Of a DNA stretch of 64,000 bases, positions 15,544 to 55,297 are shown piece after piece. Positions within the stretch are counted from its first letter, which is position 1. Every line of letters starts with the position of its first letter. The translations under genes were made by a program, and so were the position numbers. The notes under the pieces are model-generated. The model worked only from the letters and a program-made list of their open reading frames with translations, was not told where the DNA came from and ran no database searches. Source of the stretch: Trueperaceae bacterium (GTDB lineage Bacteria; Deinococcota; Deinococci; Deinococcales; Trueperaceae); the NCBI GenBank assembly GCA_965213925.1, contig OZ243927.1, positions 832,001-896,000 of the forward strand, in the 5' to 3' direction.

Positions 15544-15547
15544 TTAT

Positions 15548-15686: not shown

Positions 15687-15718
15687 TTGTGCGTGAGATG
15701 CGCGCGTCTCTTGCAGAA
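15687..15718. repeat. 13-6-13 palindromic site, copy 2
   Basis: TTGTGCGTGAGAT-GCGCGC-GTCTCTTGCAGAA. Confidence 0.9.
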
Positions 15719-15975
15719 GACTTCAGCTATCTGGTCGCCGTAAATATGGTCCGCGCTGCTGAGCAACCGGCCTGACTCGAGCAGGTGCTCCGCCTTCAGC
15801 TACGTACTTGGCGTAGTTTTTGCTCACATAGACGATGTTTTTAAGTTCACACGGTGCAAGTAGCGTCACATCGGAGAGCATCACGGTAAGACCGCTGCGT
15901 TCAACCAGCAAATTTGTTAGAAGATAGACGGTGCTACCCTTCAATTCTCACCAATCCACGCCGTTTTCGTTAACA

Positions 15976-17157
15976 TCAGGTTTCTTCGTCTATAAAAAGT
16001 ACATCGCGCACGAGACTGCGGCTGTCCGCCTGACCGCCAAGCGAACCCGCCAGGGTGCCGAACGCGGAGACGAACAGGCTCAGCTTGATATGGTCGAGCG
16101 TTCGCACCGCCGGGTCTACGGTCGGCCACGTCTCCATAAGTTGGCGCGGAAAAATCGTAGCGACGCCCAAGTAGACGAGCGCGGCGAAGGCGGCAAAAAT
16201 AAACAGCGTCGTCAGCGTAAGACTGAGCAGGATAGCCGCCCCGGTGACGACGCTCGACTCGGCTAAACGTCGGCCCCTGCGCCGGGGTGCGCCGAAAGCG
16301 AAGGCGCGGTAGAGCGCAAACGTTCCCACCGCTACGGACACACCCGCAAACAAGATGAGTTGGTACAGCTCGACGGTGCTTGCTACGTCCCACATCTCCG
16401 GGCTGAAAAACACGACGATGATAACCGACAGCGCTGCGGTAATCAGGGTAGGCAGGCGCGTCGCCAAACGCAGCGGGTTCGCCCTGGCTACAGCGTGAGC
16501 GATACTACGCCAGTCGCTCCGAAGCGTGCGCAGCACGAAACCCCAGCGGTTGCCCTGGCTCGTGCGCTCGTGCGCTTCACGCGGCAGGGCTAGGCGCACG
16601 TGGTTCCGCTGCTCGGGCGTCAGCGTCGCCATCGCGCCCAAATCGTCTACGCTTTCAAAATCGTACATCGCGTTGTGCGCCTCGTCCGAGTGCGGCAAGT
16701 TGAGAAGATGACCGAGCGTATGCAGCAGGAGGTGATTTAGGCGCTGCACGGTGAGCGCCTCGTCCGCTTCTTCCCCCCAAAAAGCGGGCTCGAGCCGCTT
16801 CGTCGAGATGACGCCGATGTTGGTCAGCTGACTCGGCAGGGCGAGGGTGTAAGAAAGTGTGGTGGCGGCGAGGTCGACTTCAGTGACGATGAGGAGAAAG
16901 TCGGCGTTACGCTCGAGTTTTTCGCTCACGCCGAGGCGCAGAAAGTCGAGCGGCGCGTAGGCTCCGGCGGTCGGGGTGAGGTGCGGTCCGTCGAAACGGA
17001 GTAGGTCAACACGCAGCCCTAGTTCGGTGCCAAGCGCCTTGTCAAACGCCGTCACCGCCTCGTTCGCCAGCCTCTCGAAACGCTCCGAGTGCTTGCCCTC
17101 CACGTCTATCGTCATCACACCGACGACGTACTCACGGCTCGAGGGGGTCTTAGACAT
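15976..17157 (-). CDS. Zincin (archaemetzincin-like) domain fused to a 4-TM membrane domain
   Basis: HTLGHLLNLPH..NAMY (HExxH-like with E replaced by T); C-terminal TM helices. Confidence 0.7.
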   Translation of the reverse strand: MSKTPSSREYVVGVMTIDVEGKHSERFERLANEAVTAFDKALGTELGLRVDLLRFDGPHLTPTAGAYAPLDFLRLGVSEKLERNADFLLIVTEVDLAATTLSYTLALPSQLTNIGVISTKRLEPAFWGEEADEALTVQRLNHLLLHTLGHLLNLPHSDEAHNAMYDFESVDDLGAMATLTPEQRNHVRLALPREAHERTSQGNRWGFVLRTLRSDWRSIAHAVARANPLRLATRLPTLITAALSVIIVVFFSPEMWDVASTVELYQLILFAGVSVAVGTFALYRAFAFGAPRRRGRRLAESSVVTGAAILLSLTLTTLFIFAAFAALVYLGVATIFPRQLMETWPTVDPAVRTLDHIKLSLFVSAFGTLAGSLGGQADSRSLVRDVLFIDEET

Positions 17158-17579
17158 GGTTGCTCACTAAGCTGAGTATACGTGACGCGCCTGTGCCAAT
17201 TCGGGACAGTTCCCTCAATCAGAAAATTTCTTACGCTAAGGCAAGCTGCCCCGTTTACAGCATTCGGTTCGTTTTGATCAGTTGTGTCGGGAACGTTCTA
17301 CTTGTGAACTAGACACTCAAACCGTCCGAAGAGCAAAGACAGGGCAGCTACGCTTAGTGCAGCAAAGCTTATTCAGGACTCAACTTATTCGCTTACCGTT
17401 AATTTTTTCCAAGCAGGGAACTACCCCTATTTGCGGTGTCCCTACGCGGAGAGATGTTCACCGAGAACTTGATACGGTGATGGAGCTACAACACGCTTGG
17501 CTGAATGGCGAGCAAGGGCACCGGATTAGCGGTTCAAGGACCACTAGCGCCCTTTTGCTTACTCAAGCTGCATAAGTCC

Positions 17580-17611
17580 TTCTGCGAGAGACGCGCGCGT
17601 CTCTCGCATAC
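17580..17611. repeat. 13-6-13 palindromic site, copy 3
   Basis: TTCTGCGAGAGAC-GCGCGC-GTCTCTCGCATAC; perfect 26-bp palindrome at 17583-17608. Confidence 0.92.
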
Positions 17612-17656
17612 CGCTTATGCAACCCTCGGTCCGTAGTCCTACCTTGTAGATTTCAA

Positions 17657-18187
17657 TCACTCAGCCTGCTGTCGGCTTGGGAACCGCTGCTCGGCGACCT
17701 TACGCAAAAGACGGTGCAGCGTCTCCCGCTCGGTCCCGCTCAAACACCCGTAGGTATCACTATCCGCCGCGTCGATAATGCTCCTACTCTCTTTGAGAAC
17801 GCGCTCACCCCGAGCGGTCAGTACCAGCTCGTAATAGCGTCGGTCATGGGTGCTCTTCACGCGCTGCACGTAACCGAGCGCTTCTAAGTCGTCTACAAGG
17901 CGCACCACGTGGGTGCGGTCCAAGCCTAGGTTCTGACTGATGGCGACCTGTGAGCGATGCTCGCTCTCGGCGATGAGCTTCATCACGCCAAGCTGACGCG
18001 CGTCGATGTGAAGCGGCTCCAACATCTCCTCCAGGACGAGCTGCGCCATCTGCGCGACGTAGCTCAGTACGTACCCCGTCTCCGACGCCAGCGTCTCGGA
18101 GAGGTCGTGAGAGTTGAAGTAGAGGGGCGGCGCGGGCACGCGATTCCGTTTAGGGACTGCTCGAGCATCTTTTGAAGCCTCAGACAT
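17657..18187 (-). CDS. MarR family regulator
   Basis: LGLDRTHVVRLVDDLEALGYVQR...DRR..LTARG. Confidence 0.9.
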   Translation of the reverse strand: MSEASKDARAVPKRNRVPAPPLYFNSHDLSETLASETGYVLSYVAQMAQLVLEEMLEPLHIDARQLGVMKLIAESEHRSQVAISQNLGLDRTHVVRLVDDLEALGYVQRVKSTHDRRYYELVLTARGERVLKESRSIIDAADSDTYGCLSGTERETLHRLLRKVAEQRFPSRQQAE

Positions 18188-18890
18188 GGGCTAGTCTACA
18201 CGTCGTGCGCCGAACCACTCTCATGTGGGTAGCCCTGCGCAGGTACGCGAGCAAGCGGTGCTGCATTTCAAAGGTCTCCAAAAGCACGTCTCGAAAACCC
18301 TTGTCCGTTACCTCGTCGTCGCGGAAATGTCGGATGGTCAGGTACTGGTTGAGCCGCAGCAGGTGAATCGCGGGGTGGTCAGTGCTGTAGCCGCGCGGCG
18401 CGTTTTTAAGGCTGTCCTCATCGTCTAGAACGTCAGAAAACACCTTGCGAAAGGCGTCGTTGTCAACGAGCTGCTCGAGTTCCTCCGGCTTGTCATGGAT
18501 GCACTCGCGAATGGTACTTAGCACCTCGCGCTTAGGCGAATGAAGCCCGCCGCCAGCGACGCTCCCGCCGGGCGTGATGTTGAGGTAGTACCCCGGTTCG
18601 ACCTCCCCTAGAGGCGCAATGACCGCCATGATGTACGTTTTGAGCGGCGCGGCGTTGTCAGGGTGAAAGCGCGTATCGCGGTAGATGCGGGGCAAGCTCA
18701 CGACGCTGCCGCCTCCTAAATCCTTGCGCAGGCGTTCGTCGAAGGGGGCGATGTCGACTGCGACACCCTTGATACTCTGCTCGAAGGCAACTTTCATCGC
18801 CTTATAGTCGTCTTTACGCTCGTTGAACCAGTCCTTGGTGTTGTTTTGCTCGAGCTGGCGGAAGAACTCGAGCAAGGTCGGGTCGATCAT
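18180..18890 (-). CDS. DUF2461 / TIGR02453 family protein
   Basis: FFRQLEQNNTKDWF, RIYRDTRF, LKNAPRGY..DHP. Confidence 0.85.
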   Translation of the reverse strand: MIDPTLLEFFRQLEQNNTKDWFNERKDDYKAMKVAFEQSIKGVAVDIAPFDERLRKDLGGGSVVSLPRIYRDTRFHPDNAAPLKTYIMAVIAPLGEVEPGYYLNITPGGSVAGGGLHSPKREVLSTIRECIHDKPEELEQLVDNDAFRKVFSDVLDDEDSLKNAPRGYSTDHPAIHLLRLNQYLTIRHFRDDEVTDKGFRDVLLETFEMQHRLLAYLRRATHMRVVRRTTCRLAHV

Positions 18891-18900
18891 GCTGCCTCTA

Positions 18901-20184
18901 TCATATTGCGCCTCGGTCGGTATCTCCCCCGCGTAAGTTCAGCATCTTGTCCATAATGACCTCCCCGCGACCAGGTTCACTCCAAGGGCAGACCTCGATA
19001 CAGATCGCGCAGCTCTCGTTGGCGACGAAGTAAGGTGCGCAGCGGTCGAAGTTGATAAACCACCGCTCCTCACCTCGGACCATCTGTTTGGTTTCGAAGA
19101 TGGCTTGCGGCGGGCAGTTGGTCGTGCAAATCTGGCAGGACATGCAGAAATCGTCCACGCCTATGTCGATAGGTACATCGGGTTCCAGGGGCATGTCCGT
19201 AAGTACCGTCGCTAGCCGCACGTTAGAGCCGTAGTCCTTGGTGATCATCGAGTTGTGCTTGCCGAGCTGCCCTAAGCCCGCTGCAATCGCGATGGGCACG
19301 TGTTGCACTTCAGACGTACCGGGCGCGATGTTCGTACACGCTATCGCCGGATAACCCCGACTGCGGATGTATTCGGCAAGACGGATCGCTGCCAAGCCGA
19401 CCTTACGGTAAATGCGAAAGACCTCGGCATGCGTGCGTATCTGGGTCGGGTAGCGCATCTCCTCGCGGTCCATCGGCACAGCGATAGAAATGGCGTACTT
19501 AAACGAAGGCTCGAAACCGTCGAAGAACCACTCATCTTGAGGCTCGGTGATGCCGACTAGAGCCGCGCCGTGCTCCTTGGCAACCGCTTTGACTCGTCCG
19601 CTCATCGCTTTGGGGCTCGTCACCGTCTCCCGCCGCCTCGCGACCGCCCCGACGCGCCGCCGGTCATCCCAGAACAGACGTACAATGACACGGGTAATTC
19701 GCCAAGATGTGAGCGTGAGGAGTACCTGGTGCAAGCCGCCCCAAGCGTAGCTAAAATCGAAGAAGAGGTAGTAGGGCCGACGCTTTTCTGTTTCGTCCAG
19801 ACCGCTTATGACCATACCCGAGACGGGCGGTTTGCGGTAGGCAAAAGGATAGCTGGGCTCCGGGTAGGACGGAAGGGCGACGTCGGGGGACTTGCGGGGC
19901 GGCAAGTCAGTTTTGGGCGACAGGTCCGCGCTGATGTTCGGCAGTGTGTCAAACTGCTGCGTCTCCGCGTCTGGCGGCTTTGGGAGGTCTTCGATCCAGA
20001 TGGTCTCTCCCCTCGAGATTTTCCGCCTGAACTGCCACTTTTGCCACTCACCGACCGTCCAATAGGCGAGTGTTGCCCCGGCGGCAAGCCCGACGCTTCT
20101 CAGCATCCTCCCCGCTATACGGACGTGCTGAGCGAGCTGTTCGGTACAGGTTCGGGGACGTTCAATCTTGACTGCCATCCACAT
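18901..20184 (-). CDS. Reductive dehalogenase/QueG-like 2x[4Fe-4S] protein (paralog 2)
   Basis: AGLGQLGKH, YGSNVRLATVLTDMP, FCMSCQICTTNCP and CAICIEVCPW. Confidence 0.8.
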   Translation of the reverse strand: MWMAVKIERPRTCTEQLAQHVRIAGRMLRSVGLAAGATLAYWTVGEWQKWQFRRKISRGETIWIEDLPKPPDAETQQFDTLPNISADLSPKTDLPPRKSPDVALPSYPEPSYPFAYRKPPVSGMVISGLDETEKRRPYYLFFDFSYAWGGLHQVLLTLTSWRITRVIVRLFWDDRRRVGAVARRRETVTSPKAMSGRVKAVAKEHGAALVGITEPQDEWFFDGFEPSFKYAISIAVPMDREEMRYPTQIRTHAEVFRIYRKVGLAAIRLAEYIRSRGYPAIACTNIAPGTSEVQHVPIAIAAGLGQLGKHNSMITKDYGSNVRLATVLTDMPLEPDVPIDIGVDDFCMSCQICTTNCPPQAIFETKQMVRGEERWFINFDRCAPYFVANESCAICIEVCPWSEPGRGEVIMDKMLNLRGGDTDRGAI

Positions 20185-20256
20185 CTCCTCTAGGTTGGGG
20201 CTTTTTACAAAAAGTCAATACATCTTCGTTACGGTAATGTGACAGGAAAGTCACCT

Positions 20257-21525
20257 TCACGTTTCGGCACTCCCGCGGCGGCTGAGCATCTTGTCCATGA
20301 TGACGTTGCCGCGCCCCGGTTCACTCCACGGGCAGACCTCGATGCAGATGCCGCACCCCTGGTTGGCTGAGAAATAGGGGACGCACTGATCGAAATTGAT
20401 GAACCACCGCTCTTCACCCCGCACCATCTGCTTGGTCTCGAAAATGGCTTGCGGCGGGCAGTTTGTCGTGCAGACCTGGCAGGACATGCAGAAGTCGTCC
20501 ACACCGATGTCCACGAGCTGGTCAATTTCCAAAGGCAGATCAGTCAAGACCGTCGCGAGCCGCACGTTCGCGCCGTAATCCTTTGTGATGATCGAGCCGT
20601 GTTTGCCAAGCTGCCCCAACCCGGCTTCAACCGCAAGGGGAATGTGTAGCACCTCCGTCGTGCCAGGAGAGATGTTCGTGCTAGCCCTGGCGGGATAGCC
20701 TAGGCTGCGGATGTGTTCGGCGAGGCGGATGGCGACGCGCCCCACGTCCTCGTAAATGCGAAAAACCTCCACCATCGCACGCTCGCTCGGCGTGTAGCGC
20801 ATCTCCTCGCGGTCCATTGGCACGGCGACGGAGATGGCATATTTGAATGAGGGCTCGAAGCCCTCGAAGTACCACTCGTCGCGCGGCTCGGTAATACCGA
20901 CTAAAACCGCGCCGCACTCCTTCGCGACCTCTTTGATTCGTGCACTCATCGCCGCTGTATCAGTAACCGGCTGCTGGTCTTTCCAGACCGCCCCGTCACG
21001 CCGCGCGTTATCCCGGAAGATGCGCACGACCGATCGCACGACGCTGAGTGGGATCAGAGTAAAAAACACTTGCGTCAAGCCGCCCCAGGCGTAGCTAAAG
21101 TCGAAGAAGAGGGGGCGAGGTCGGCGCTTCTTTGCCTCGTCTAAGCCGCTGATGACCATGCCCGACACGGGCGGCTGCCGGTAGGCGAAGGGATAGCGGG
21201 GTTCGGGGTAGGACGGCAGGGCGACGTCGGAGGACTTGCGGGGCGACAGGTCGGTTCTCGGTGATAAATCAGCCTGAATATTCGGTAATTCGCCGAACCG
21301 CTGCGTCTCGGCGGAGGGGGGCTTGGGCAGGTCCTCGATCCAGACGGTTTCGCCGCGGGCGCTCGAGCGCGTCAGGTGCCGCTCCTGCCAACGTTTGAGC
21401 GTTCGGCTGGCGAGCGTCACGCCTAGGGCTAAGCTCGTGTTCACTAGCTTGTGCCGCGCGGCGCGAATGCGCTGGGAGAGGTGCTCGGCGCGGGTTTTCG
21501 GATGGTCATTTTTGGGAAGAGTCAT
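20257..21525 (-). CDS. Reductive dehalogenase/QueG-like 2x[4Fe-4S] protein (paralog 1)
   Basis: AGLGQLGKHG, RLATVLTDLP, FCMSCQVCTTNCP and CGICIEVCPW. Confidence 0.8.
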   Translation of the reverse strand: MTLPKNDHPKTRAEHLSQRIRAARHKLVNTSLALGVTLASRTLKRWQERHLTRSSARGETVWIEDLPKPPSAETQRFGELPNIQADLSPRTDLSPRKSSDVALPSYPEPRYPFAYRQPPVSGMVISGLDEAKKRRPRPLFFDFSYAWGGLTQVFFTLIPLSVVRSVVRIFRDNARRDGAVWKDQQPVTDTAAMSARIKEVAKECGAVLVGITEPRDEWYFEGFEPSFKYAISVAVPMDREEMRYTPSERAMVEVFRIYEDVGRVAIRLAEHIRSLGYPARASTNISPGTTEVLHIPLAVEAGLGQLGKHGSIITKDYGANVRLATVLTDLPLEIDQLVDIGVDDFCMSCQVCTTNCPPQAIFETKQMVRGEERWFINFDQCVPYFSANQGCGICIEVCPWSEPGRGNVIMDKMLSRRGSAET

Positions 21526-21540
21526 GGTAGTTTGCGACGG

Positions 21541-22950
21541 TTACGCCGCTCGAGCCTCGCGCTTCACCATGCTAGGCTCGACCTCCGCCGCCTCCAACAT
21601 CGCCTCGACGGATGCGAACTTCGTGCGCCACCGCCTGTTCTGCAAACCCCCTGCACGTCGCTCCGCCCGGTCGATGCGCCGCCAGTCCTCCTTAGTCACG
21701 TAGCGCACATCCTTCTCCTCTAAGAGCCGGTTCACCGCCTCAGGTTCGGGGTTTTGTGCACGGGGCAGGCTCGGCAAGTCTTCGAGAAGATGCCGCACGG
21801 TCTCCTCGGCGTCGGTTTTGTTCGTACCGATGACGCCCGAAGGTCCGCGCCGCACCCAGCCGGAGGTGTATTCACCCGGTACGACCTCACCATCTGAAGT
21901 CGTCACACGCCCACCCTCGTTCGGGATGACGCCGCGCTTATCGTCGAAGGGCACGTCCGGAAGAGGCTGGCTGCGGTAGCCGACCGAACGCAGCAGCAGA
22001 CCGGTATCCAAGTGCTCAAGCTCACCCGTGCTAACAGCCGAGAGGCGGTCGCCCTTGGGCTCGAGCCGGTTCTTTTCCAACTTGAGCCCTTGTACCCGCC
22101 CCTCTCCTAGCACTTCAACCGGCGACCTGAAGAAGTGAATATGGACGCGCTTCTCTGCGCCGGGCTTGCGCTGATCTGCGTATTCGGTAAACAGCGCCAC
22201 GTTTCGCCGGGTCTTCTTCGCTTCTAATTCATTTTTGAACGTGTCCTCTTGGTCGGACTCGAGGTCCGCTGGGTCCACAACCATATCTACATCAGGCAGT
22301 TCACCCACTTCGCGCAGCTCTTTGGGCGTAAAATTCGCCTGCGAGGGTCCGCGCCGCCCTAAGATGTGAACGTCGGTGATGCTCGAGCGTCTAAGCGCGT
22401 CCACCGCATAGCCCGCCATGTCGCTCTCGGCGAGCGCGTCCGGGTCCTTGAGGAGTGCCCGCGTCACGTCCAGCGCGACGTTGCCCATGCCGATGATGGC
22501 GGCGTGCTGCGCATCTAGGGGCGGATTCAACCCTGCGTGGTCCGGGTGCGCGTTGTACCACGCGACGAACTCGGTGGCGGAGAGGCTGCCGGGGAGGTCT
22601 TCGCCAGGGATGCCCAAGGACTTATCGCTGCTCGCGCCGACCGTATAGATGACCGCGTCATAGTGCCGCTTTAGCTCGCCATGCGTGATGTCCTGACCGA
22701 ACGTGACGTTGCCGAAGTAGCGCACCGCCTCGTGCTTCAAGATGAGGTCGAAGGTGACCGACTTGGACTTCACTACGGGGTGGTCGGGCGCGACGCCGTA
22801 GCGAACTAGCCCGTACGGACTCGGCAGGCGTTCGAAGAGGTCCACGGACACCTTGCCCCCATTTTTCAGTAGGGCGTGCGTCGCGTAGAAGCCTGCCGGA
22901 CCTGCGCCGATGATCGCGACGCGCAAAAGGCGTGAGGAATGTTTAGACAT
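21541..22950 (-). CDS. fprA: NADPH-ferredoxin reductase (FprA/adrenodoxin reductase-like)
   Basis: GAGPAGFY, GLVRYGVAPDH, GMGNVALDV, GRRG, GWVRRGPSGVIGTN. Confidence 0.88.
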   Translation of the reverse strand: MSKHSSRLLRVAIIGAGPAGFYATHALLKNGGKVSVDLFERLPSPYGLVRYGVAPDHPVVKSKSVTFDLILKHEAVRYFGNVTFGQDITHGELKRHYDAVIYTVGASSDKSLGIPGEDLPGSLSATEFVAWYNAHPDHAGLNPPLDAQHAAIIGMGNVALDVTRALLKDPDALAESDMAGYAVDALRRSSITDVHILGRRGPSQANFTPKELREVGELPDVDMVVDPADLESDQEDTFKNELEAKKTRRNVALFTEYADQRKPGAEKRVHIHFFRSPVEVLGEGRVQGLKLEKNRLEPKGDRLSAVSTGELEHLDTGLLLRSVGYRSQPLPDVPFDDKRGVIPNEGGRVTTSDGEVVPGEYTSGWVRRGPSGVIGTNKTDAEETVRHLLEDLPSLPRAQNPEPEAVNRLLEEKDVRYVTKEDWRRIDRAERRAGGLQNRRWRTKFASVEAMLEAAEVEPSMVKREARAA

Positions 22951-23294
22951 GGAAACTCTCTTTCATCTAAATTTGCTTCTGAGATACGAGTAATTGCGAA
23001 GCGCCACGGTTGTCTCCTCGAGTTGACAAACAGCAATTCCATTACTCGTTGCTACACCACTGATTGCGTCCATTTCTATTCGCATCCGCTCACACTTTTG
23101 CTTGCTACAGCAAGCAAAAGTGGAAATGCTAAAACAAGTGAAAGGGCGAAAAGGCTTCTTCATCTAAACTAAGTATATTAGGTGATTATTTCATCTATAG
23201 GTATCTTCACTTACATTGTGATAGTGCTTTTGTGAATCCTCCATTTTTGCCTATCGCACAAAGCTCTGGACGTAGCGTCCTTAAACACCTTTGT

Positions 23295-23395: not shown

Positions 23396-23427
23396 TTGTG
23401 CGGCAGACGCGCGCGTTCGCCGCGTAA
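23396..23427. repeat. 13-6-13 palindromic site, copy 4
   Basis: TTGTGCGGCAGAC-GCGCGC-GTTCGCCGCGTAA. Confidence 0.85.
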
Positions 23428-25438: not shown

Positions 25439-25470
25439 TTCTGCGTGAGATGCGCGCGTTCGTCGCACAA
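25439..25470. repeat. 13-6-13 palindromic site, copy 5
   Basis: TTCTGCGTGAGAT-GCGCGC-GTTCGTCGCACAA. Confidence 0.9.
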
Positions 25471-27540: not shown

Positions 27541-27573
27541 TTCTGCCACGAACGCGCGCCGTTCGTGGCAGAA
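27541..27573. repeat. Palindromic site, copy 6 (7-bp spacer)
   Basis: TTCTGCCACGAAC-GCGCGCC-GTTCGTGGCAGAA, perfect arms. Confidence 0.85.
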
Positions 27574-28919: not shown

Positions 28920-28951
28920 TTCTGCAAGAGACGCGCGCGTCTCTCGCACAA
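28920..28951. repeat. 13-6-13 palindromic site, copy 7
   Basis: TTCTGCAAGAGAC-GCGCGC-GTCTCTCGCACAA. Confidence 0.92.
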
Positions 28952-35149: not shown

Positions 35150-35181
35150 TTCTGCGTGAGACGCGCGCGTCTGTTGCAGAA
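35150..35181. repeat. 13-6-13 palindromic site, copy 8
   Basis: TTCTGCGTGAGAC-GCGCGC-GTCTGTTGCAGAA. Confidence 0.92.
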
Positions 35182-39666: not shown

Positions 39667-39769
39667 TGGTGCATCCGGTTAATCTCGCGCACGCTTCGGA
39701 AGTGGCTTTCCGTATTGCCAGCGCAAACCACTGAGAAAACACCTTGCAGCGGACTTAAAAGATGCACCA
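39667..39769. mobile_element. 103-bp MITE (copy B)
   Basis: Exact reverse complement of 15548-15650; TTCT on both flanks. Confidence 0.85.
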
Positions 39770-39801
39770 TTCTGCAGGAGACGCGCGCGTTCGCCGCAGA
39801 G
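39770..39801. repeat. 13-6-13 palindromic site, copy 9
   Basis: TTCTGCAGGAGAC-GCGCGC-GTTCGCCGCAGAG. Confidence 0.9.
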
Positions 39802-44762: not shown

Positions 44763-44794
44763 TTCTGCGGCTAACGCGCGCATCTTACGCGTAG
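44763..44794. repeat. 13-6-13 palindromic site, copy 10
   Basis: TTCTGCGGCTAAC-GCGCGC-ATCTTACGCGTAG. Confidence 0.8.
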
Positions 44795-46120: not shown

Positions 46121-46152
46121 TTCTGTGCGAGTTGCGCGCATCTCGCGCAGAA
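46121..46152. repeat. 13-6-13 palindromic site, copy 11
   Basis: TTCTGTGCGAGTT-GCGCGC-ATCTCGCGCAGAA. Confidence 0.85.
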
Positions 46153-47127: not shown

Positions 47128-47145
47128 CCCTCGTTTTCCTGGACT

Positions 47146-48081
47146 TCAAGCATTTTGCTGAAGCGCGGACGCGGACAGATAGCGGTACGATCCACGCCGA
47201 AACTCTTCGATGATGGATGGGCGGCGCGGCTGCCAGCCGAACGTATCTCTCGCGAGCGCCCCTGACACCCGCATGTTTATAGTGAGGTAGTAGCCGAGGA
47301 AGCCGAACGAGGACATCGTGACTTCATTCGTGACTTGGTCCAATTCCTCCCCGACACCTGCGGCGACCCCGGCAGCAGCCATGACCTCTTTGGAGAGCAA
47401 GGTGTCGCCCGCACCGATAACGAGGGGGAGTCTACCGTCACGCTCGAGCACCAGAAGGAAGAGGTCAGCGAGGTCGTCCACGTGGACGAGGGTGATGACG
47501 CGGTCCCCCTGGACATAACCTGCTCGCCCTCGCGTCTCGATACCCGCCAAGCTGCCGAGAACCGGCGGGCTTGCGGCGCGACCGTAAACCAGAGCGGGGC
47601 GTACGATGGAGGCGTGCGGCTTTTTCAAAACGCTTAGCTCGGCGGCGGCGAGTGCGCCGAAGGGACTCTGCGCTGGCACCGCTGTGTCCTCGTCAGCGGT
47701 GCTCTCCCCCGTATCTCCGTAGATGCCCGTTCCGCTCGTTGAGATGAAGCGAAGCGACCTCGAGGCCGTCGCTTCTGCGAGAAACTGCAGTGTCACCGCA
47801 GCCTTGTCTGTAGCCTCCTCCACGCTCGCGTTCGGCGTAGGGGTTTCGTGCGTTGTCGCCGTGTGCACGACCGCGTCGACCTCACCCAACGCCTGCTCCA
47901 AGGCATCAGTATCGTTGAGGTCGGCGCGCACTGGTACAACACCTCGCTTCGCGGCACGCTCCGCTGAGGCATCCGAGCGCACGAGGCCGTGAACGGTGTA
48001 GCCTGACGCGAGCAGTCGCTCGGCGATGACCGAGCCTATGTAACCTGTTGCGCCTGTAAGTAGGATGGTCTTGCCCATCAC
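47146..48081 (-). CDS. NAD-dependent epimerase/dehydratase (atypical SDR)
   Basis: TGATGYIG, STSGTGIYGD, RPALVYG, VHVDDLA. Confidence 0.85.
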   Translation of the reverse strand: MMGKTILLTGATGYIGSVIAERLLASGYTVHGLVRSDASAERAAKRGVVPVRADLNDTDALEQALGEVDAVVHTATTHETPTPNASVEEATDKAAVTLQFLAEATASRSLRFISTSGTGIYGDTGESTADEDTAVPAQSPFGALAAAELSVLKKPHASIVRPALVYGRAASPPVLGSLAGIETRGRAGYVQGDRVITLVHVDDLADLFLLVLERDGRLPLVIGAGDTLLSKEVMAAAGVAAGVGEELDQVTNEVTMSSFGFLGYYLTINMRVSGALARDTFGWQPRRPSIIEEFRRGSYRYLSASALQQNA

Positions 48082-48929
48082 GCCTTCGCCATTCCAAAAG
48101 CGGAGAGGAGCTGCTGTTGCACCTCGCGAGCCGCCTCGTTCATCACTTCGACGGGCTGCTTCATATCTGCACCGATGGGCTGACGTAAACCCTGCACCTT
48201 GCCCTCGACTGCGTCCACGATCACGCGAACGACCTCTTGCGAGTCACCTTGTTCCATCGCGCCAAAGCTCGCCATGAACCCTTCGAACATCTCCTTGACG
48301 AGCCCGTAGGTTTCCATTCGCGCTTCGTCTACGCCTAGACTCAGATTCGCGCCGAAGTCCGTGCCATACGCGCCTGGTTGGACGATGAAGCTGCGGATGC
48401 CCAAGGGCTCGAGTTCGTAAGATGCGGCTTCAGCGAGCGCCTCTAGCGCGAATTTCGAGGCGGCATAGAGCCCACCGAAGGGCGTGACGAGCCGACCCAC
48501 CGCGCTGCTCAGGTAGATGACGAGCCCGCTTCCTTGCTCACGCATATAGGGTAGCACCGCACGGTTTACGCGCAAGACGCCCATCACGTTCACGTCGAAG
48601 AGCTGCTGCGCCTGCTCCGGTGTAACCGTTTCCTGGATGCCCATCACGCCGATACCGGCGTTATTGACGAGCACGTCGAGCCTGCCTGCCTCGGCAACCG
48701 CCCTCGAGACCGCTTGCTCCACGGAAGCGTCGTCTGTAACGTCGAGGTCCATAACCTGCAACGCTAAATTCTCTTGCTCAGCTAACTCACGCAAGTCTCG
48801 GGCGACCTCTGCGTTCTTATCCTCCATCCCTCGCATCGTCGCGAATACGGTATGACCGCGCTTCGCTAACTCAACTGCTGTTCCTTTCCCAAACCCGCTG
48901 CTCGCACCTGTAATGAGAACGCTTGCCAT
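48078..48929 (-). CDS. SDR family oxidoreductase
   Basis: TGASSGFG, NNAG, YAASK. Confidence 0.92.
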   Translation of the reverse strand: MASVLITGASSGFGKGTAVELAKRGHTVFATMRGMEDKNAEVARDLRELAEQENLALQVMDLDVTDDASVEQAVSRAVAEAGRLDVLVNNAGIGVMGIQETVTPEQAQQLFDVNVMGVLRVNRAVLPYMREQGSGLVIYLSSAVGRLVTPFGGLYAASKFALEALAEAASYELEPLGIRSFIVQPGAYGTDFGANLSLGVDEARMETYGLVKEMFEGFMASFGAMEQGDSQEVVRVIVDAVEGKVQGLRQPIGADMKQPVEVMNEAAREVQQQLLSAFGMAKA

Positions 48930-48991
48930 ACGTGACTCCCTTCGAGCCGTTCGTTAGGGTGACCTGCTATGATTTGTCCTAACAAGGACGG

Positions 48992-49030
48992 TATGTCACC
49001 ACTGTTGACAGTGTAAACAGTGGTGACATA
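48992..49030. promoter_or_regulatory. Probable TetR operator
   Basis: Perfect 15-bp arms TATGTCACCACTGTT...AACAGTGGTGACATA between the divergent SDR and TetR genes. Confidence 0.75.
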
Positions 49031-49065
49031 AGCTGTCAAGGGGATTAGCGTATGGGCGAACAGAT

Positions 49066-49662
49066 ATGACGAAACAGAGCTATCATCACGGCAGCCTGCG
49101 CGAAGCGCTTATAGATACAGCGCTGGAGAGTTTAACGTACCAGCGGGCGGGCGAGATCAGTCTGCGTAAGCTGGCAAGCAAACTCGATGTGGACCACACT
49201 GCCGTGTACCGCCATTTCAAGAACCGTGATGCGCTCCTGGCGGCGATGATCGAAGCGGGCTACCGCGACCTCAATAAGGCAATGGTGCAGGCGTGGCAGA
49301 CCGACGCGCCCTGGCGTGAGCGTGTCAAGCTCGTGGTCAAGGCGTACGCCGAGTACGCACGGGCTAACCCCAACCTCTTCGAGATCATGTTTGGCGGCGC
49401 GCTGGATGAATCGAAATACCCGGCCCTGCAGCAGCTCTCTGTCGAGAGCACGAACATGTTCGTCACCTACATCGAGCAGGCGCAAGCGGACGGGGTGTTG
49501 ACAGGTGATGCGCCGGACCAGGTCGCTCTGAACGTCTGTATGTTGTGTCACGGGCTCGCGCAGATGGTGGTGGGCAACCAGTTCAACGGTCCCTTCGCCA
49601 AGGCGGACGAGGACCTAGACGGACTGGCTGAGGGTGTAGTGGCGGGTATGAATTTGCAGTGA
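49066..49662 (+). CDS. TetR family regulator (WHG type)
   Basis: YHHGSLR, ISLRKLA..AVYRHF, LCHG. Confidence 0.9.
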   Translation: MTKQSYHHGSLREALIDTALESLTYQRAGEISLRKLASKLDVDHTAVYRHFKNRDALLAAMIEAGYRDLNKAMVQAWQTDAPWRERVKLVVKAYAEYARANPNLFEIMFGGALDESKYPALQQLSVESTNMFVTYIEQAQADGVLTGDAPDQVALNVCMLCHGLAQMVVGNQFNGPFAKADEDLDGLAEGVVAGMNLQ

Positions 49663-49724
49663 GCGGGTCCAATTAAGAAAGCTTTTTGAGTTCGCAGGAA
49701 GTTCTAACGACACTTACCTTGGTT

Positions 49725-49767
49725 TTCTGCAAGAGACGTGTGCGAGACGCGCGCAACTCTCGCAGAG
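49725..49767. repeat. Palindromic site, copy 12, with internal 11-bp duplication
   Basis: TTCTGCAA-GAGACGTGTGC-GAGACGCGCGC-AACTCTCGCAGAG. Confidence 0.8.
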
Positions 49768-49892
49768 CGCTTAGGTGAGCTTTGGCTCGGTTCATCACAC
49801 AGCCACCTGTTCTAAATCTATATCGTTTGACAAATAAACGTTTATTTGCTATACATTTATCTGATGAACTTCTTGATTTGGAGGATAGGTGT

Positions 49893-50384
49893 ATGACAGA
49901 CGTGCAAGAGAGATTGGAGAACATTCAGGTCGACTGGGAACCGCTGCCCGAGGCGCTAACCGGCATTACCGGCTTCATGCTCTACTGGGTCACTGGGTTA
50001 GCGGGGCAATTCTACGCGCAAGCCGTTGCTACCGTAGGGCTGGAGCCGCAGCAGGTTGCCACCTTGCAGCTCTTGACGATCGAGGGGCCGATAGTTCAGG
50101 CGCGCTTGGCTGAACGGTTGCGCATCAACAAAGCAACGATGGTGGGTATTCTCAATAGCCTTGAAGAACAGGAGCTGGTCGAGCGACGACCTTATGCAGG
50201 AGATAAGCGAGCACTCGAGATTCACCCGACGAACGCAGGCAGGGAAAAAGCCAGGGAACTCGAACGGGTCAACCGCGAGGCGGACCGCCTCTTCTTCGCG
50301 TCTCTAAGCAGTGAGGAGCGCGAAACTTTCCACGCATTGCTTGCCAAGCTCGCTACCGCTCAGCCTCAGGGGAGGTCGGCGTGA
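49893..50384 (+). CDS. MarR family regulator
   Basis: QARLAERLRINKATMV..LEEQELVER..DKR; RBS GGAGG. Confidence 0.88.
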   Translation: MTDVQERLENIQVDWEPLPEALTGITGFMLYWVTGLAGQFYAQAVATVGLEPQQVATLQLLTIEGPIVQARLAERLRINKATMVGILNSLEEQELVERRPYAGDKRALEIHPTNAGREKARELERVNREADRLFFASLSSEERETFHALLAKLATAQPQGRSA

Positions 50385-50830
50385 GCTTAGCCATTTTCAT
50401 CCTGCTACTCGTCGCGCTCACCACGTTTTTCAATGCCGGCCTGCAGTACTACACTACGGTCTCGACCTACCCGCTCTTCAGCGAGGTAGATGAGGCGAAC
50501 TTCGTGCGCTTCCACAAGGCGTACGAGGGCAAGCTACCGCTGTCGATCTACATTCCCTATTCGCTCTGGATGCTCAGCACATTGGCGCTTCTCTTCGTGC
50601 GCCCTGATGGGGTCACGCTGCTATGGATCGTGCTGCTCCTGGTACTCAACGGCTCCATCATGGTAATAAGCCTTGCCTTCGCCGCACCGGTGCATACAAA
50701 GTTAGACCGTGAAGGCAAGAGTGCAAGCGACCTCGCCAGGCTGCGCCGCTACAACCTGCCGCGCCTGCTCGCGGTTGCTGCAAGCAGCATGGTCGCGCTA
50801 TATCTATTGGCGATCAGCCTCACAAGCTAA
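50381..50830 (+). CDS. Four-TM membrane protein
   Basis: Hydrophobic helices, YPLF..V..F..FH; coupled to the MarR gene. Confidence 0.7.
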   Translation: MSLAIFILLLVALTTFFNAGLQYYTTVSTYPLFSEVDEANFVRFHKAYEGKLPLSIYIPYSLWMLSTLALLFVRPDGVTLLWIVLLLVLNGSIMVISLAFAAPVHTKLDREGKSASDLARLRRYNLPRLLAVAASSMVALYLLAISLTS

Positions 50831-50884
50831 CCCCTCGAAAAGACATGTTCTTGTAGGGACCTTTACGACCCCGAAAGGACCGCT

Positions 50885-51649
50885 ATGGCTATACGATCTG
50901 CAAACGCGCCTAGAAACACGTTCCTAACGGGCTGGACCGCGCCGCTGTTTATCATGCTCGTGCGCTGGCCGCTCTTGCTGGCGGGTTACGCGCTCGTCGC
51001 CCTGCTCTTTCAGGGGCAGGGGTTGGACCGGGTGTGGCAGCGAGCGGCGCTGCACAACTACGTCATCGTCAGCCTGTTCGCCGACCTCGGGTGCCTGCTA
51101 CTCCTTGCCTGGCTGATGCGGCGCGAAGGGGGGCGACTCGTGGACCTACTCAACTTGGAGCGAGGCAAGGTTGGGCGAGACGTCCTCATCGGTATAGCGC
51201 TCTTTTTCGTCATGGCTGCCGCGTTTTACCTCAGCCCGCTCGTAAGCGCCTTTCTCGTCACCGGTCGCCTCGACGCGAGCGCGGCTTGGGGCACGAACCC
51301 CTTCGTCGTCCCGCTCTGGGTCCACGTCTGGAACATGACTATCTTCCCGGTCACGACCAGTATCACCGAGGAGATGGTCTACCGGGGCTACGCCTTGCCG
51401 CGTATTGAGCGGCTCACCGGGCGGGTGTGGCTGGCGGTGCTCATCCCCGCCACTGCCTTCGGGCTTGCCCACCTCACGCCGCCCTTCACGGGTATAGAGA
51501 GCGTAACCCTCCGCTTCCTTACGCTTTTCTTCGTCGGGGCGGTGCTCGAGCTACTCTACTTACGCTACCGCAGGCTCCTGCCGCTCATCGTCGGGCACTA
51601 CCTCATTGATCTGATCTTTCTGGGAGTCTTGCCGTTCGCCCTTAGCTGA
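50885..51649 (+). CDS. CPBP (CAAX protease/Abi) intramembrane metalloprotease
   Basis: EEMVYRGY, FGLAH, GHYLID. Confidence 0.88.
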   Translation: MAIRSANAPRNTFLTGWTAPLFIMLVRWPLLLAGYALVALLFQGQGLDRVWQRAALHNYVIVSLFADLGCLLLLAWLMRREGGRLVDLLNLERGKVGRDVLIGIALFFVMAAAFYLSPLVSAFLVTGRLDASAAWGTNPFVVPLWVHVWNMTIFPVTTSITEEMVYRGYALPRIERLTGRVWLAVLIPATAFGLAHLTPPFTGIESVTLRFLTLFFVGAVLELLYLRYRRLLPLIVGHYLIDLIFLGVLPFALS

Positions 51650-51693
51650 GGGGTTAAAGGTTTATAGGTGCAGTCATAACCTCCATACCTACC

Positions 51694-51725
51694 GTGTGCG
51701 ACAGTAGCGCGCGTTCGTCGCAGAA
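51694..51725. repeat. 13-6-13 palindromic site, copy 13 (next to the recombinase)
   Basis: GTGTGCGACAGTA-GCGCGC-GTTCGTCGCAGAA. Confidence 0.85.
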
Positions 51726-51815
51726 CACCCACTGCCCTTCAAAAACGATTCAAAGCAGACCTCCGTGCAGACTACAGCTCGGAGGTTTTTTATGGACGAA
51801 TAAGAGACACTCATA

Positions 51816-52682
51816 TTGACAAATTGTGTTGAGGAATACCTGAAAGCTCGTAATCTGGACGGCTACAGTGACAAAACGCTCTATTCCTACAGGCTGCATC
51901 TAAATCGTTTGACCGCAGATTTGGGCAATGCCACTCCTATCGACATTATCAAGCTCGAACATCTACGTTCTCACCTCACCAGCCTGACGCATCTGCAAAC
52001 CTCAAGTTTGGCGAACAAGGTCCGCGCCCTTAAAGCCTTTTTCAAGTGGCTCTACGAGGAGGAGATATTGGAGCGCAACCCCGCACTGAAGCTGAGGGAG
52101 CCGCGCTTACCCGCGAGAATCCCTAAAGCGCTTTCGGTTGAAGAAGTTGAGCTGCTGCGTGACGCCTGTGAGAGTTTATTGGAGCACGCCTTAGTCGAGT
52201 TCTTCTTCGCCACCGGCTGCCGTGTGAGCGAAATTCACCAACTGGACCGCATCGACCTCGACTGGGTGCGGCGCAGCGCAGTCGTGCTGGGCAAGGGTAA
52301 TAAGGAGCGCGAGGTGTACTTCGGAGCAAAAGCCGCGCTGTGGCTCAAACGATATCTCGACAGCCGAACGGATAGCTCTTTGGCGCTATTCGTTACGAAG
52401 CGACGAAGACGCCAGCATAGCGGGGCTTTAGAGCATCAGCGTCTCAGCACGTCGCAGATACAACGCATCTTTAAGCGTGTGGCGCGGCGGTGCGGCTTGG
52501 AGGAGAAAGTAACCCCTCACGTGCTGCGCCACACGCTCGCAACTCTTCTGCTAAACCAAGGTGCACCGATCGCTGCCGTGCAGTCCATCCTCGGGCACGC
52601 CTCGCCCACCACAACACAGCTCTATGTCAACCTCTCCGGTGAGTCGCGGCAGATGCTCTACAAAAGGCATTTCCCGCAGTAA
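51816..52682 (+). CDS. Tyrosine recombinase (XerD-like, not IntI)
   Basis: N-terminal SAM-like domain; complete catalytic set TGCRVSE, GKGNKER, HVLRH, LGH, TTQLY. Confidence 0.92.
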   Translation: MTNCVEEYLKARNLDGYSDKTLYSYRLHLNRLTADLGNATPIDIIKLEHLRSHLTSLTHLQTSSLANKVRALKAFFKWLYEEEILERNPALKLREPRLPARIPKALSVEEVELLRDACESLLEHALVEFFFATGCRVSEIHQLDRIDLDWVRRSAVVLGKGNKEREVYFGAKAALWLKRYLDSRTDSSLALFVTKRRRRQHSGALEHQRLSTSQIQRIFKRVARRCGLEEKVTPHVLRHTLATLLLNQGAPIAAVQSILGHASPTTTQLYVNLSGESRQMLYKRHFPQ

Positions 52683-52730
52683 GGAAAGGTTGTTCTTTTG
52701 TCAGCGAAAGGGAAGCTGTATAATACAGCT

Positions 52731-52955
52731 ATGGCTGACAGCAATTTTGAGCGCACCTTCGCGGCTTTACCTCCCGACCTCAAGCAAGAGGTCCAAGACT
52801 TTGCTGAGTTTCTCCTTTCCAAGCGATCAACGCAAGATAGAGCTGTGAGTGACGCTCACCCGCTCGCGAGCTTAGCGGGCGCATGGCGCGACGAGCCGCT
52901 CTCGGACGAAGACCTCTTGCCTGAACGAACGCTCGGACGCGGCGTCGATCTCTAA
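52731..52955 (+). CDS. DUF2281-like antitoxin
   Basis: LPPDLKQEVQDFAEFL...LAGAW; precedes a PIN toxin; TATAAT 6 bp before ATG (leaderless). Confidence 0.75.
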   Translation: MADSNFERTFAALPPDLKQEVQDFAEFLLSKRSTQDRAVSDAHPLASLAGAWRDEPLSDEDLLPERTLGRGVDL

Positions 52956-52962
52956 ATTCTAG

Positions 52963-53364
52963 GTGCTTTATCTTCTCGACACGGATACGCTTGTTTTCTA
53001 CTTGCGGGGACGCTCCGAGGTGAGACAGAAAATTCTCAGCGTCCCTACGGATGATCTCTGCACTAGCGCTATGTGCATCGGCGAGCTTTATTATGGTGCG
53101 GAGAAATCTCAGAAGCAAGTGGAGCGAAAAGCCGAGGTCGACCGCTTGCGTGCGGCGCTGATGAGCATCCCTCTGCAAGGGGCGGTGATGGAGCGCTTCG
53201 GTCAGTTGAAGGCGTCGCTCGAGAAGCAAGGCGAGCGGCTAGCTGACGCCGACTTACTGATCGCGGCGACAGCTCTGGAAAACAACCTCACGCTCGTCAC
53301 GGGCAACCTCAAGCACTTCCAGCGTGTGCAGGGGCTGAAGATGGAGAGTTGGATCAAGCGCTGA
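52963..53364 (+). CDS. vapC: VapC PIN-domain toxin
   Basis: YLLDTD, GELYYGA, DLLIAATA, LVTGNLKHF. Confidence 0.92.
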   Translation: MLYLLDTDTLVFYLRGRSEVRQKILSVPTDDLCTSAMCIGELYYGAEKSQKQVERKAEVDRLRAALMSIPLQGAVMERFGQLKASLEKQGERLADADLLIAATALENNLTLVTGNLKHFQRVQGLKMESWIKR

Positions 53365-53385
53365 AACGTCAGAAGGGCTGAGCCA

Positions 53386-53417
53386 TTATGCGTGAGACGC
53401 GCGCGTCTCTTGCAGAA
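53386..53417. repeat. 13-6-13 palindromic site, copy 14
   Basis: TTATGCGTGAGAC-GCGCGC-GTCTCTTGCAGAA. Confidence 0.92.
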
Positions 53418-53438
53418 GAAATCAGCAAGTATAACTCT

Positions 53439-53873
53439 TTAAGAGGTGGTTGCATCCTTCGGAGGGTAACGCCCTATTGCCTGCAAAACCTCCCGCTCCA
53501 GCAGCCTTTCGCGGACGTTGAACTGGAGCAGGCGTTCGGTGACGCGGGCGATATCGGTGAGCGGCATGATCTTCACCTGGTCGAGTTCGAAATGCTCAGC
53601 CCACAGGTCCACTCGCGGATTGTAAAAGCGCGCGAACGCCTCTGTCTTCCAGTCGATCGAGCCGATGTCGCTTCCCTTAGCGCGATTACAGACCACGCAG
53701 GCGAGTGCTAGGTTGTCCTCTTCGGTCCGCCCGCCGTGTTTCTCGCTGATGATGTGATCGATTTGCATTGCGTAGTAGCTGTCGTCTTCGTGGATCAAGC
53801 AGTATTCGCAGCATCTATTCGCCTTAGCTAAAACGCGCTGGCGCAGGTCCGCCGGGATATACGTTTTACTCAC
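53439..53873 (-). CDS. HNH endonuclease
   Basis: CEYC, IDHII..HGG, NLALACVVCNRAKG. Confidence 0.9.
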   Translation of the reverse strand: MSKTYIPADLRQRVLAKANRCCEYCLIHEDDSYYAMQIDHIISEKHGGRTEEDNLALACVVCNRAKGSDIGSIDWKTEAFARFYNPRVDLWAEHFELDQVKIMPLTDIARVTERLLQFNVRERLLEREVLQAIGRYPPKDATTS

Positions 53874-54099
53874 TCAGCAATTGCCTAGCTTTGGCTTTCG
53901 CTAAGCGCATAACGTGCTCGAGCTGCATATACTGGTCGAGCTCGCGACGCTCGTCCTGGGATAACCCCTGCGCCTTCTCTTGTTCGATAAGTTCGGCGAC
54001 CCGTGCTTGTGCGCCCTCAGAGGGGCGGAAGGAGACAACCCCAGAGGGATTTGCACCTGCGATCAGGTCAACGATTTCTTGGTAAGCGAGGGTTGCCAT
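53866..54099 (-). CDS. Small helical protein, putative antitoxin for the HNH
   Basis: FRPS..AQARV..L..K...ELD.Y..LEH; overlaps the HNH gene; leaderless TATAAT at 54106-54111. Confidence 0.7.
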   Translation of the reverse strand: MATLAYQEIVDLIAGANPSGVVSFRPSEGAQARVAELIEQEKAQGLSQDERRELDQYMQLEHVMRLAKAKARQLLSE

Positions 54100-54131
54100 A
54101 ACGCTATTATACCTCAGCTTGAGAAATGGGA

Positions 54132-54163
54132 TTCTGCGTGTGATGCGCGCGTTCGCCGCACAA
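54132..54163. repeat. 13-6-13 palindromic site, copy 15
   Basis: TTCTGCGTGTGAT-GCGCGC-GTTCGCCGCACAA. Confidence 0.9.
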
Positions 54164-54216
54164 AATTATCGAAGAGAACAAACGATGCGATGAGAAACTA
54201 CTTTGTGCCCCAACAT

Positions 54217-54678
54217 CTACCGTTTGAGCAGTCGCGGGTCATAGTTGAACGCTTGCGCCTCGCCGATCTCTACTCGCCCAGCATCGGGATGGTTCGGATT
54301 AAAAAGGTAGTTCCGTTCCGCCGCGACCACACGGCTCGGCACCGCGAGGAGCACCGACGCGTTACGCTTGACCCAAGCGTCCCCGATCGCTTGAGTGGTA
54401 GGTAGACCTTCAGGCTCAGCCCAGTTCTCGGACAAGCTCTCAGGCGACACGTTCAGTAGAAGCGTTTCGCCAAAGGTAATTGGAATAGCTGTATAAGGCT
54501 CAAGCGCACGCTCGTAGTCGATGTGGACGAGTAGCTCCAAAGCTGCGAGGGCTAAACTGCTCGCTAGATAAACGACTGCCGTGCCCGCTGAGTTCCAGCG
54601 ACCTCCGTAACGCCGCGCCCCCTCACCGTCGAATGCGGATGCAGCCCATTTAGGCGCGACGAGCCGCCAGGCTTTCAG
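54217..54678 (-). CDS. RES-domain NAD+ phosphorylase toxin
   Basis: AWRL..FDGEGARRYGGRWNS..YLASSLALAALE..VPS..ERNYLFNPNHP; start extended to CTG overlapping the antitoxin stop. Confidence 0.88.
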   Translation of the reverse strand: MKAWRLVAPKWAASAFDGEGARRYGGRWNSAGTAVVYLASSLALAALELLVHIDYERALEPYTAIPITFGETLLLNVSPESLSENWAEPEGLPTTQAIGDAWVKRNASVLLAVPSRVVAAERNYLFNPNHPDAGRVEIGEAQAFNYDPRLLKR

Positions 54679-55124
54679 TAGAACACTCCATGCTCAACAC
54701 GGTGTAGTAGATGCTCGACCTCGCGCGCTCCCAGCTCACTATGGGCGAGTTCGAAAGGCGTTTGTCCGCCAAAAACTGGGCGCGGTGTCTGCATCCAACG
54801 CCGAGCTAAATCTTTGTCTCCAATGACCTGAGTCGCTAGAGCATAGAGTTCGGCAAAGCGCACCAACCGCTCGGATGGGCTGGACTCGAGTGGCGCACCC
54901 GCCTCTTCACGCCGCTGAACTGTGCGTAAGGAGAGACCAACTGCCTTCGCGAGGTCCTCGCGGGCAATACCTGCAGTCTTGCTGAACTGATCAAAGGCAG
55001 CAGCCGATAAACCTGAGCGCACCGTGCGGATACGCTCGAGCGGGGTACTCTGCGCCAGACCTAAAGCTGCATCCCAGATGCTCTGCTCCGCCGGGGGTGG
55101 GGTGAAATCGAAAACAGCATCCAT
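54675..55124 (-). CDS. Xre/MbcA/ParS antitoxin
   Basis: GLSLRTVQRR..SERLVR..ARRWMQTP..FGGQTP..G.REVE..L.RVEHGVF. Confidence 0.88.
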   Translation of the reverse strand: MDAVFDFTPPPAEQSIWDAALGLAQSTPLERIRTVRSGLSAAAFDQFSKTAGIAREDLAKAVGLSLRTVQRREEAGAPLESSPSERLVRFAELYALATQVIGDKDLARRWMQTPRPVFGGQTPFELAHSELGAREVEHLLHRVEHGVFY

Positions 55125-55265
55125 AGCTAACCTCCAGACTACTGTCAATAATTATACGACAGAAGTCGCGTCAAGGCAGACTATTTATCGACATGTATGG
55201 TCAGTACACCTAACTGTCTTGAGGGGCTGATGTAGCGTATGCATGACCGCCCAGCCTACGCCTCG

Positions 55266-55297
55266 TTCTGCGGTGAACGCGCGCGTTTGGCACACAC
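55266..55297. repeat. 13-6-13 palindromic site, copy 16
   Basis: TTCTGCGGTGAAC-GCGCGC-GTTTGGCACACAC. Confidence 0.8.

Follow-up and report, generated by a model that had tools for sequence, protein, structure and literature searches.

Palindromic 13+6+13 sites between gene modules of a Trueperaceae chromosome as likely recombination sites for a dedicated Xer-like recombinase

In integrons (IntI, attI, attC) a tyrosine recombinase serves arrays of accessory genes that can be exchanged, and the hsdS shufflons of type I restriction systems depend on invertases acting at one locus. In the dif modules of Acinetobacter, C and D modules are described as alternating between polar pdif sites, which have distinct 11-bp XerC and XerD arms and variable spacers (PMC13141974), and elements of the IS1202 family are described as targeting pdif sites (PMC10132070). 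The genes of rAID-1 arrays are presented in the available text as running in one direction behind a 5' recombinase, being of low GC and including an excess of immunity genes (10.1101/471110). Symmetric cores have been reported to give deletion, inversion and head-to-head products with TnpI, accessory motifs restoring selectivity (PMC2847244), and the loxPsym sites of SCRaMbLE in synthetic yeast, which are engineered, identical 34-bp sites for Cre, are described as recombining in either orientation (PMC4691749). Here we describe a family of palindromic sites in a stretch of 64,000 nucleotides from a Trueperaceae bacterium (assembly GCA_965213925.1, contig OZ243927.1, positions 832,001 to 896,000; the whole stretch is called the window below), together with the gene modules between these sites and a tyrosine recombinase gene carried by one of the modules.

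We consider it likely, with a probability of roughly 0.85, that the palindromes separate movable gene modules and are recombined, as double-stranded DNA, by a dedicated Xer-like tyrosine recombinase. One recombinase subunit would bind each 13-bp arm, and strands would be exchanged across the 6-bp spacer. Each module would carry one arm at each end, and the common spacer would let any module end join any other. The self-complementary spacer would also remove the orientation constraint, leaving excision, integration and inversion all open. We infer that the module-borne recombinase cuts the sites as a single-protein tetramer on double-stranded DNA, with circles as intermediates.

Sites, modules and homology breaks

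A primary site is 32 bp long, with two 13-bp arms in inverted orientation flanking a 6-bp spacer. A profile trained on the window sites gave 90 matches above 14 bits in the 4.75-Mb Trueperaceae genome (G000) and none in the reversed genome; in the window there were 16 matches above 5 bits, compared with none in the reversed window. This site family is not chance. One overlapping match was dropped, and arm and spacer statistics for G000 use the remaining 89 sites. The ten palindromic sites named in an earlier sequence-only reading are all present at the starts given there. Five full sites (23396, 35150, 46121, 49736 and 51694), the half-site 62876 and the CGGGCC-spacer dyad 15651 had been overlooked, and the window holds 14 sites with a six-base spacer, the variant at 27541, the half-site and the variant dyad. 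The spacer GCGCGC is nearly invariant, as had been claimed, occurring in 78 of the 89 G000 sites and in 156 of 174 pooled Trueperaceae sites; site 27541 has one extra base, and with its 7-nt spacer it probably cannot recombine with the 6-bp-spacer sites. The site features of the window are listed below, with the strand where one is assigned.

15651..15682, plus strand: secondary dyad with the asymmetric spacer CGGGCC, 36 bp before primary site 15687
15687..15718: primary site (13+6+13); the right-hand module recurs in genome G001 from the first spacer base on
17580..17611: primary site; inner arms perfectly palindromic, with 4 of 7 bases of the inner left arm unlike the G001 homologue and the flank 98.7% identical
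23396..23427: primary site; an IS-like (insertion sequence-like) end abuts its left end
25439..25470: primary site
27541..27573: variant site with perfect 13-bp arms and a 7-nt spacer
28920..28951: primary site
35150..35181: primary site; left and right modules lie at separate places in G001 and G002
39770..39801: primary site; flush with it lies a 103-bp MITE (miniature inverted-repeat transposable element)
44763..44794: primary site; a duplicate of its left flank, left arm and spacer lies at C1:3214494-3216268 (99.9%), with another right arm and neighbour
46121..46152: primary site; module 44776-46139 matches G001 from spacer to spacer, inverted
49736..49767: primary site; a partial copy overlaps at 49725, and a degenerate secondary dyad lies at ~49771-49802
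51694..51725: primary site, directly upstream of the recombinase gene
53386..53417: primary site
54132..54163: primary site
55266..55297: primary site
62876..62907: half-site; left arm lost, spacer and right arm intact

All 15 full sites of the window are intergenic, and the modules between them carry one to five genes. Modules have a median length of ~2 kb and are often multi-gene. The family is mostly clustered, the sites on contig C1 forming seven clusters over 320 kb plus three singletons, and the GC content of the arrays is 50-65%; GC skew of the genome located no terminus. The site pattern is present in 5 of the 61 genomes searched.

The 150 bases beside each arm were compared among 348 site sides, drawn from G000, from fetched parts (not whole) of G001, G002, G005 and G034, and from loci L002 and L004. 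This gave 86 homologous module-end pairs in 57 families, and the far flank was shared in none of the 86. In 42 of the 51 in-register pairs the better match was in the adjoining arm, in six it was in the far arm, and three were tied. Where flanks were 99% identical or more (13 pairs), 11 pairs had the same adjoining arm, all 13 the same spacer and one the same far arm; the inner identity of the far arm (0.505) was close to the background (0.486). Arms therefore go with the adjacent module and not with the partner arm, a co-segregation that the sequence-only reading had put forward as a check.

Single cases can be followed to the base. Positions 43011-44785 and C1:3214494-3216268 share 99.9% identity that extends over the left arm and spacer of site 44763, and the right arm differs. 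Module 44776-46139 has an exact match in G001, inverted, that runs from spacer to spacer, and window positions 15700-17610 match G001:C4:1526442-1528352 at 98%, starting at the first spacer base. Two other modules are duplicated inside the genome at 100% identity, with ends at or beside spacers. Modules have been duplicated and relocated between clusters and between genomes, and homology breaks at the spacer also in pairs without an IS end. Contigs of another study end their match at sites (X3 54146-55272, 50837-51714) or join sequences near sites (X2, 46149 to 51759 and 49766 to 51742; X3, 53414 to 49801), and with a likeness of 88% they may be from other strains, so these joins do not demonstrate ongoing recombination. 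A five-gene module at 17657-23292 (MarR, DUF2461, two 4Fe-4S paralogues and a ferredoxin-reductase-like protein) is repeated on C6 as a 91% copy and twice in G002. In G034 (L099, L100), homologues of two window modules lack flanking sites in the fetched regions, although that genome does have a few sites in other places.

The sequence-only reading had also sorted the arms into two types, A and B, a scheme that proved too simple. The 178 arms of G000 carry the inner triplets AAC (60), GAC (55), GTT (36), GAT (14) and others (13), which makes at least four common inner classes, and 132 of these arms are distinct. The A and B labels of the ten sites fit well in eight and only roughly at 55266 and 44763, and A-B is B-A read from the other strand. 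Class pairings are near random (AAC/GAC 31, with 35.1 expected), GAC/GAC being somewhat high (25, with 17.7 expected). The outer six arm positions are mostly conserved and the inner seven vary as linked blocks, with a mutual information of 0.15-0.40 bits between neighbouring positions within an arm and of 0.01-0.05 bits between arms (null 95% level 0.03). Positions 13 and 20 vary independently, and the overlap is thus fixed at 6 bp. Strong compensatory covariation between the two arms of a copy had been named as the mark of a hairpin, and none was found: left-right complementarity equals that of shuffled pairs both in the 89 G000 sites (670, compared with 677±15) and in the 174 pooled Trueperaceae sites (1343, compared with 1344±21).

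The recombinase and its relatives

One module of the window carries a candidate enzyme for these sites:

51792..52682, plus strand: Xer-like tyrosine recombinase gene with catalytic R, K, H, R, H and Y all present; adjoins site 51694

The catalytic set is R136, K160, H235, R238, H261 and Y270, and the protein has PF00589 and a SAM-like N domain, which places it in the tyrosine recombinase superfamily. Its closest structural relatives are XerA and XerD (best PDB matches 4a8e, 1a0p and 5hxy), and it scores under the cut-offs for XerC (207/335), XerD (200/330) and XerA (197/220). The closest sequence relatives are in Trueperaceae and the next (42-61%) in Bacillota; an Atlas search returned generic integrase clusters only. 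Among the 61 genomes searched, the recombinase was found in 4 of the 5 with sites and in none of the other 56. A primary site lies ~120 bp upstream of the gene in five of the seven Trueperaceae copies examined. The recombinase module also carries a PIN toxin-antitoxin-like pair.

The association of enzyme and site extends to Bacillota. A strict palindrome scan of the 80 loci lacked sensitivity; an iteratively trained profile found 123 sites in 24 of 47 Bacillota loci and one in the reversed control. The arm profile is similar to that of Trueperaceae, and the spacers are asymmetric and C-rich. Covariation between arms is at most weakly in excess in these sites (870, compared with 844±14; p=0.04). 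In trees of 70-71 rows (quick IQ-TREE and FastTree; 12 loci with short, interrupted or misassigned open reading frames (ORFs) left out), 25 short enzymes group together (support 89 and 96), 7 of them from Trueperaceae rows and 18 from Bacillota rows. A site lies nearby in 14 of these 18 Bacillota rows. The sister group (~330 aa) gave one weak site match in 17 rows, and the one locus checked was phage-like; a further group of 28 rows had no sites, and the one locus checked was an hsdS locus (L048). In one family, 44 of 67 genomes contained the Bacillaceae site pattern (control 0). Bacillaceae arrays also include short doublets of two spacer classes.

Orientation, inner arms and rival explanations

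A symmetric spacer had been expected to permit both excision and inversion, and site strands can be compared with those of the Bacillota relatives. In Bacillota, 78 of 83 adjacent pairs of asymmetric sites point the same way, and in 52 of 61 modules the main gene has one and the same direction with respect to the site. By contrast, the Trueperaceae junctions comprise 57 head-tail, 27 head-head and 26 tail-tail, adjacent modules have the same orientation in 56 cases and opposite orientations in 52, and in 15 of 35 pairs the homologous module ends are joined to partners that differ in polarity. These arrays showed no fixed integrase-attI head. A Gottfriedia genome (G063; L075, L101-L111) has a different self-complementary spacer at 38 of ~80 sites scanned, where symmetry probably arose independently; its polar sites occur in both orientations in some arrays, and ~8 of 22 consecutive pairs are opposed, compared with ~2 of 52 in G062 and G065 (counted by eye). 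Mixed orientation as a result of the symmetric spacer is supported by these site-strand contrasts together with the TnpI and loxPsym experiments cited above, and the symmetric spacer is a putative cause of the inversions. The inversion step is less firmly shown than crossover in the spacer.

Secondary dyads of the CGGGCC type are found 34-37 bp from primary sites on ~15 of 348 sides, 13 of the 15 being at the tail end of the module's longest ORF. By analogy with TnpI, they could be accessory elements. Site G000:C6:11209, a perfect 32-bp palindrome at a tail-to-tail junction, has a secondary dyad on either side.

Several points weigh against the proposal that the palindromes serve a dedicated recombinase by crossover in the spacer, with inversion open. 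Gene flips do not differ significantly between symmetric and asymmetric sites (56/52 and 35/19, p=0.13), nor in two further comparisons (57/53 and 18/15, p=0.84; 15/6 and 18/15, p=0.26), and these counts rest on crude longest-ORF calls; on this measure the expectation of inversion finds no support. The secondary dyads may impose direction at some module ends. Two of the near-identical pairs keep the far arm too (13/13 and 12/13), and some breakpoints therefore lie outside the spacer. The genomes and module-end pairs are not mutually independent, and recombination is deduced from assembled contigs rather than directly observed. Genome G034 carries sites but no close recombinase (two queries). 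In the window gene an in-frame stop occurs at codon 4 (51801-51803) after a conserved ATG, which could be real or an assembly error, and the open frame from TTG 51816 encodes 288 aa. A paralogue (88%) at C1:3232339-3233229, also after a site, has Asp in place of the conserved Gly before the last catalytic His. With one copy interrupted and the second altered in this way, the system may have little or no activity in this strain. Many relatives of the recombinase are interrupted as well, including one G001 copy and copies in G062 and G063, and these interruptions possibly reflect selection to damp shuffling.

Repeated crossover in the spacer, as the sequence-only reading had it, is upheld by the lack of covariation and by the homology breaks at the spacer. 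It does not account for everything, as the inner arms are additionally overwritten in blocks. Over 32 close pairs, differences affect ~3% of positions in the flank and outer arm and 17% of the inner seven. For the inner seven of the adjoining arm this amounts to 39 mismatches where 6.1 were expected, a rate about six times that of the flank, and pairs with three or more inner changes number eight, with 0.06 expected. In this second process, junctions might migrate into the arms and be repaired, or one arm might be copied from its partner before further reshuffling; the process probably generates the arm ‘types’. Copying from the present partner arm is unsupported, the differing bases matching the site's own partner 92 times with 85 expected, although there is an excess of perfect inner palindromes.

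The same sites and the same crossover might be served by another enzyme of the genome, either a housekeeping Xer-like protein or a phage integrase, with the module-borne recombinase as a passenger. There are ten PF00589 matches in the genome to choose from, and both the interruption of the window gene and the sites of G034 would be in keeping with such a passenger. We consider this unlikely, however, given that, among the genomes searched, the recombinase was found only in site-bearing ones and that the link spans phyla, following the short clade and not its sister clade.

It is very improbable that the system is integron-like, the site being recombined as a folded single strand in the manner of an attC hairpin. 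The sites are indeed palindromic, perfect inner palindromes are in excess (12 of 174, with 3.7 expected; p=0.0007), and for 4 of 14 window sites nearly all shuffles fold less well. However, the arms do not covary, the other 10 of the 14 fold no better than shuffles, and the enzyme reaches 112 bits on the integron integrase model TIGR02249, which has a cut-off of 265, its match to IntI4 being limited to residues 203-273.

Least credible of all, in our judgement, is that the sites are RNA hairpins, terminators, REP-like (repetitive extragenic palindromic) repeats or protein-binding sites and that the modules are moved by insertion sequences or homologous recombination: the intergenic position of the sites and the IS and MITE ends that abut some of them would fit, but the sites have no Rfam match, none of nine terminator-like matches in 39500-55500 coincides with a site, compensatory change is absent, and the junction data, with homology breaking at the spacer where no IS end is present, largely refute it. 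A hairpin or terminator function was rejected on the covariation, folding, Rfam and terminator results.

With a dedicated recombinase acting at the spacer as the preferred explanation, we lean slightly towards a broader view. The short Xer-like clade and its 13+6+13 sites would form a cassette system, with a site unrelated to that of integrons, that is widespread in directional form in Bacillota. The spacer would have turned self-complementary in the Trueperaceae lineage and, independently, in Gottfriedia. The ~90 chromosomal sites would then be a natural SCRaMbLE-like system, damped by recombinase inactivation and by the secondary polar dyads and parasitised by site-seeking IS630 elements.

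Mobile elements, neighbouring genes and known systems

Three mobile elements lie at or near the sites of the window:

14284..15545, plus strand: IS630-family element (NF033545, 136 bits, cut-off 100); adjoins a MITE and the secondary dyad
15548..15650: 103-bp MITE; abuts the outer end of dyad 15651
39667..39769: 103-bp MITE identical to the 15548 copy, inverted; abuts site 39770

At 19 of 348 site sides, the outer end directly adjoins the end of an IS630-family element or MITE (TGG..CAT type), the background being 3.7e-4 per position. This suggests site-seeking transposition, as with IS1202 at pdif.

The genes of the window include a run of phosphatase and phosphoesterase modules at 25596-37901 (PhoD twice, calcineurin-like twice, a GDPD-like protein and an exo/endo-phosphatase). 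Within it, a 698-aa protein encoded at 29087-31183 has no Pfam or NCBIfam match. At 39866-42760 and 52700-55148 there are an arsenic-resistance-like operon (ArsR, a low-molecular-weight phosphatase/ArsC-like protein and an aquaporin), an HNH module, a RES-Xre pair and a PIN toxin-antitoxin-like pair. An exact 39-bp direct repeat with 78-bp spacing occurs at 56883-56999 in a fumarate-reductase-like fragment, and is either an in-frame duplication or an assembly artefact.

No description of the Trueperaceae site system or of its directional bacillus form was found in the literature searched in full text, most subscription papers and supplements lying outside that scope. As in integrons, the arrays hold exchangeable accessory genes and have a tyrosine recombinase. 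Unlike integrons, the system is without an IntI-type enzyme or a conserved hairpin, and its modules are often multi-gene and lie in both orientations. The hsdS shufflon invertases (~330 aa) form a more distant clade of the same protein family and are found among hsdS segments (L048), and no 13+6+13 sites were found near them. In a shufflon or inverton, inversion takes place at one locus, whereas the Trueperaceae modules are duplicated and relocated between clusters and genomes.

The dif modules of Acinetobacter are described as accessory modules between two-arm sites with a 6-bp spacer, with crossover in the site, with inversion, excision and extensive shuffling of modules, and with insertion sequences that target the sites (PMC13141974; PMC10132070), and in these respects the Trueperaceae system appears similar. 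The Trueperaceae sites differ from pdif, so far as the available text describes it, in having one arm class (13 bp), a constant self-complementary spacer and near-random class pairing, and the arrays differ in being chromosomal (~320 kb of C1) with a dedicated recombinase inside a module. Like the rAID-1 arrays of Bacteroidales, as presented, they combine a XerD-like recombinase with repeated intergenic motifs between variable genes (10.1101/471110); in contrast to that account, the recombinase lies within the array, orientation is mixed and GC is 50-65%. By its description, TnpI of Tn4430 shares with our system a single tyrosine recombinase and inverted core motifs, its cleavages being 6 bp apart, but it resolves the transposon cointegrate at one internal resolution site per element, with no arrays described (PMC2847244).

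The Trueperaceae system resembles dif modules or integrons in its working and is neither. If our interpretation is true, it would be one more way, besides these two, in which accessory-gene arrays are built and reshuffled in nature. The ~90 orientation-free sites on a natural chromosome raise the question of how lethal deletions and inversions are avoided. The enzyme-site pair seems to accept varied arms as long as the 6-bp spacer stays fixed, and could supply a new orthogonal recombinase tool. Like loxPsym in SCRaMbLE, as described, it places many symmetric-spacer sites on one chromosome, pairs of which could recombine either way; unlike loxPsym it is natural, its arms vary around a 6-bp spacer, and modules also seem to be carried from genome to genome (PMC4691749). 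This system in a relative of Deinococcus, with modules that can probably be joined either way round, would thus be a natural counterpart of engineered genome scrambling.

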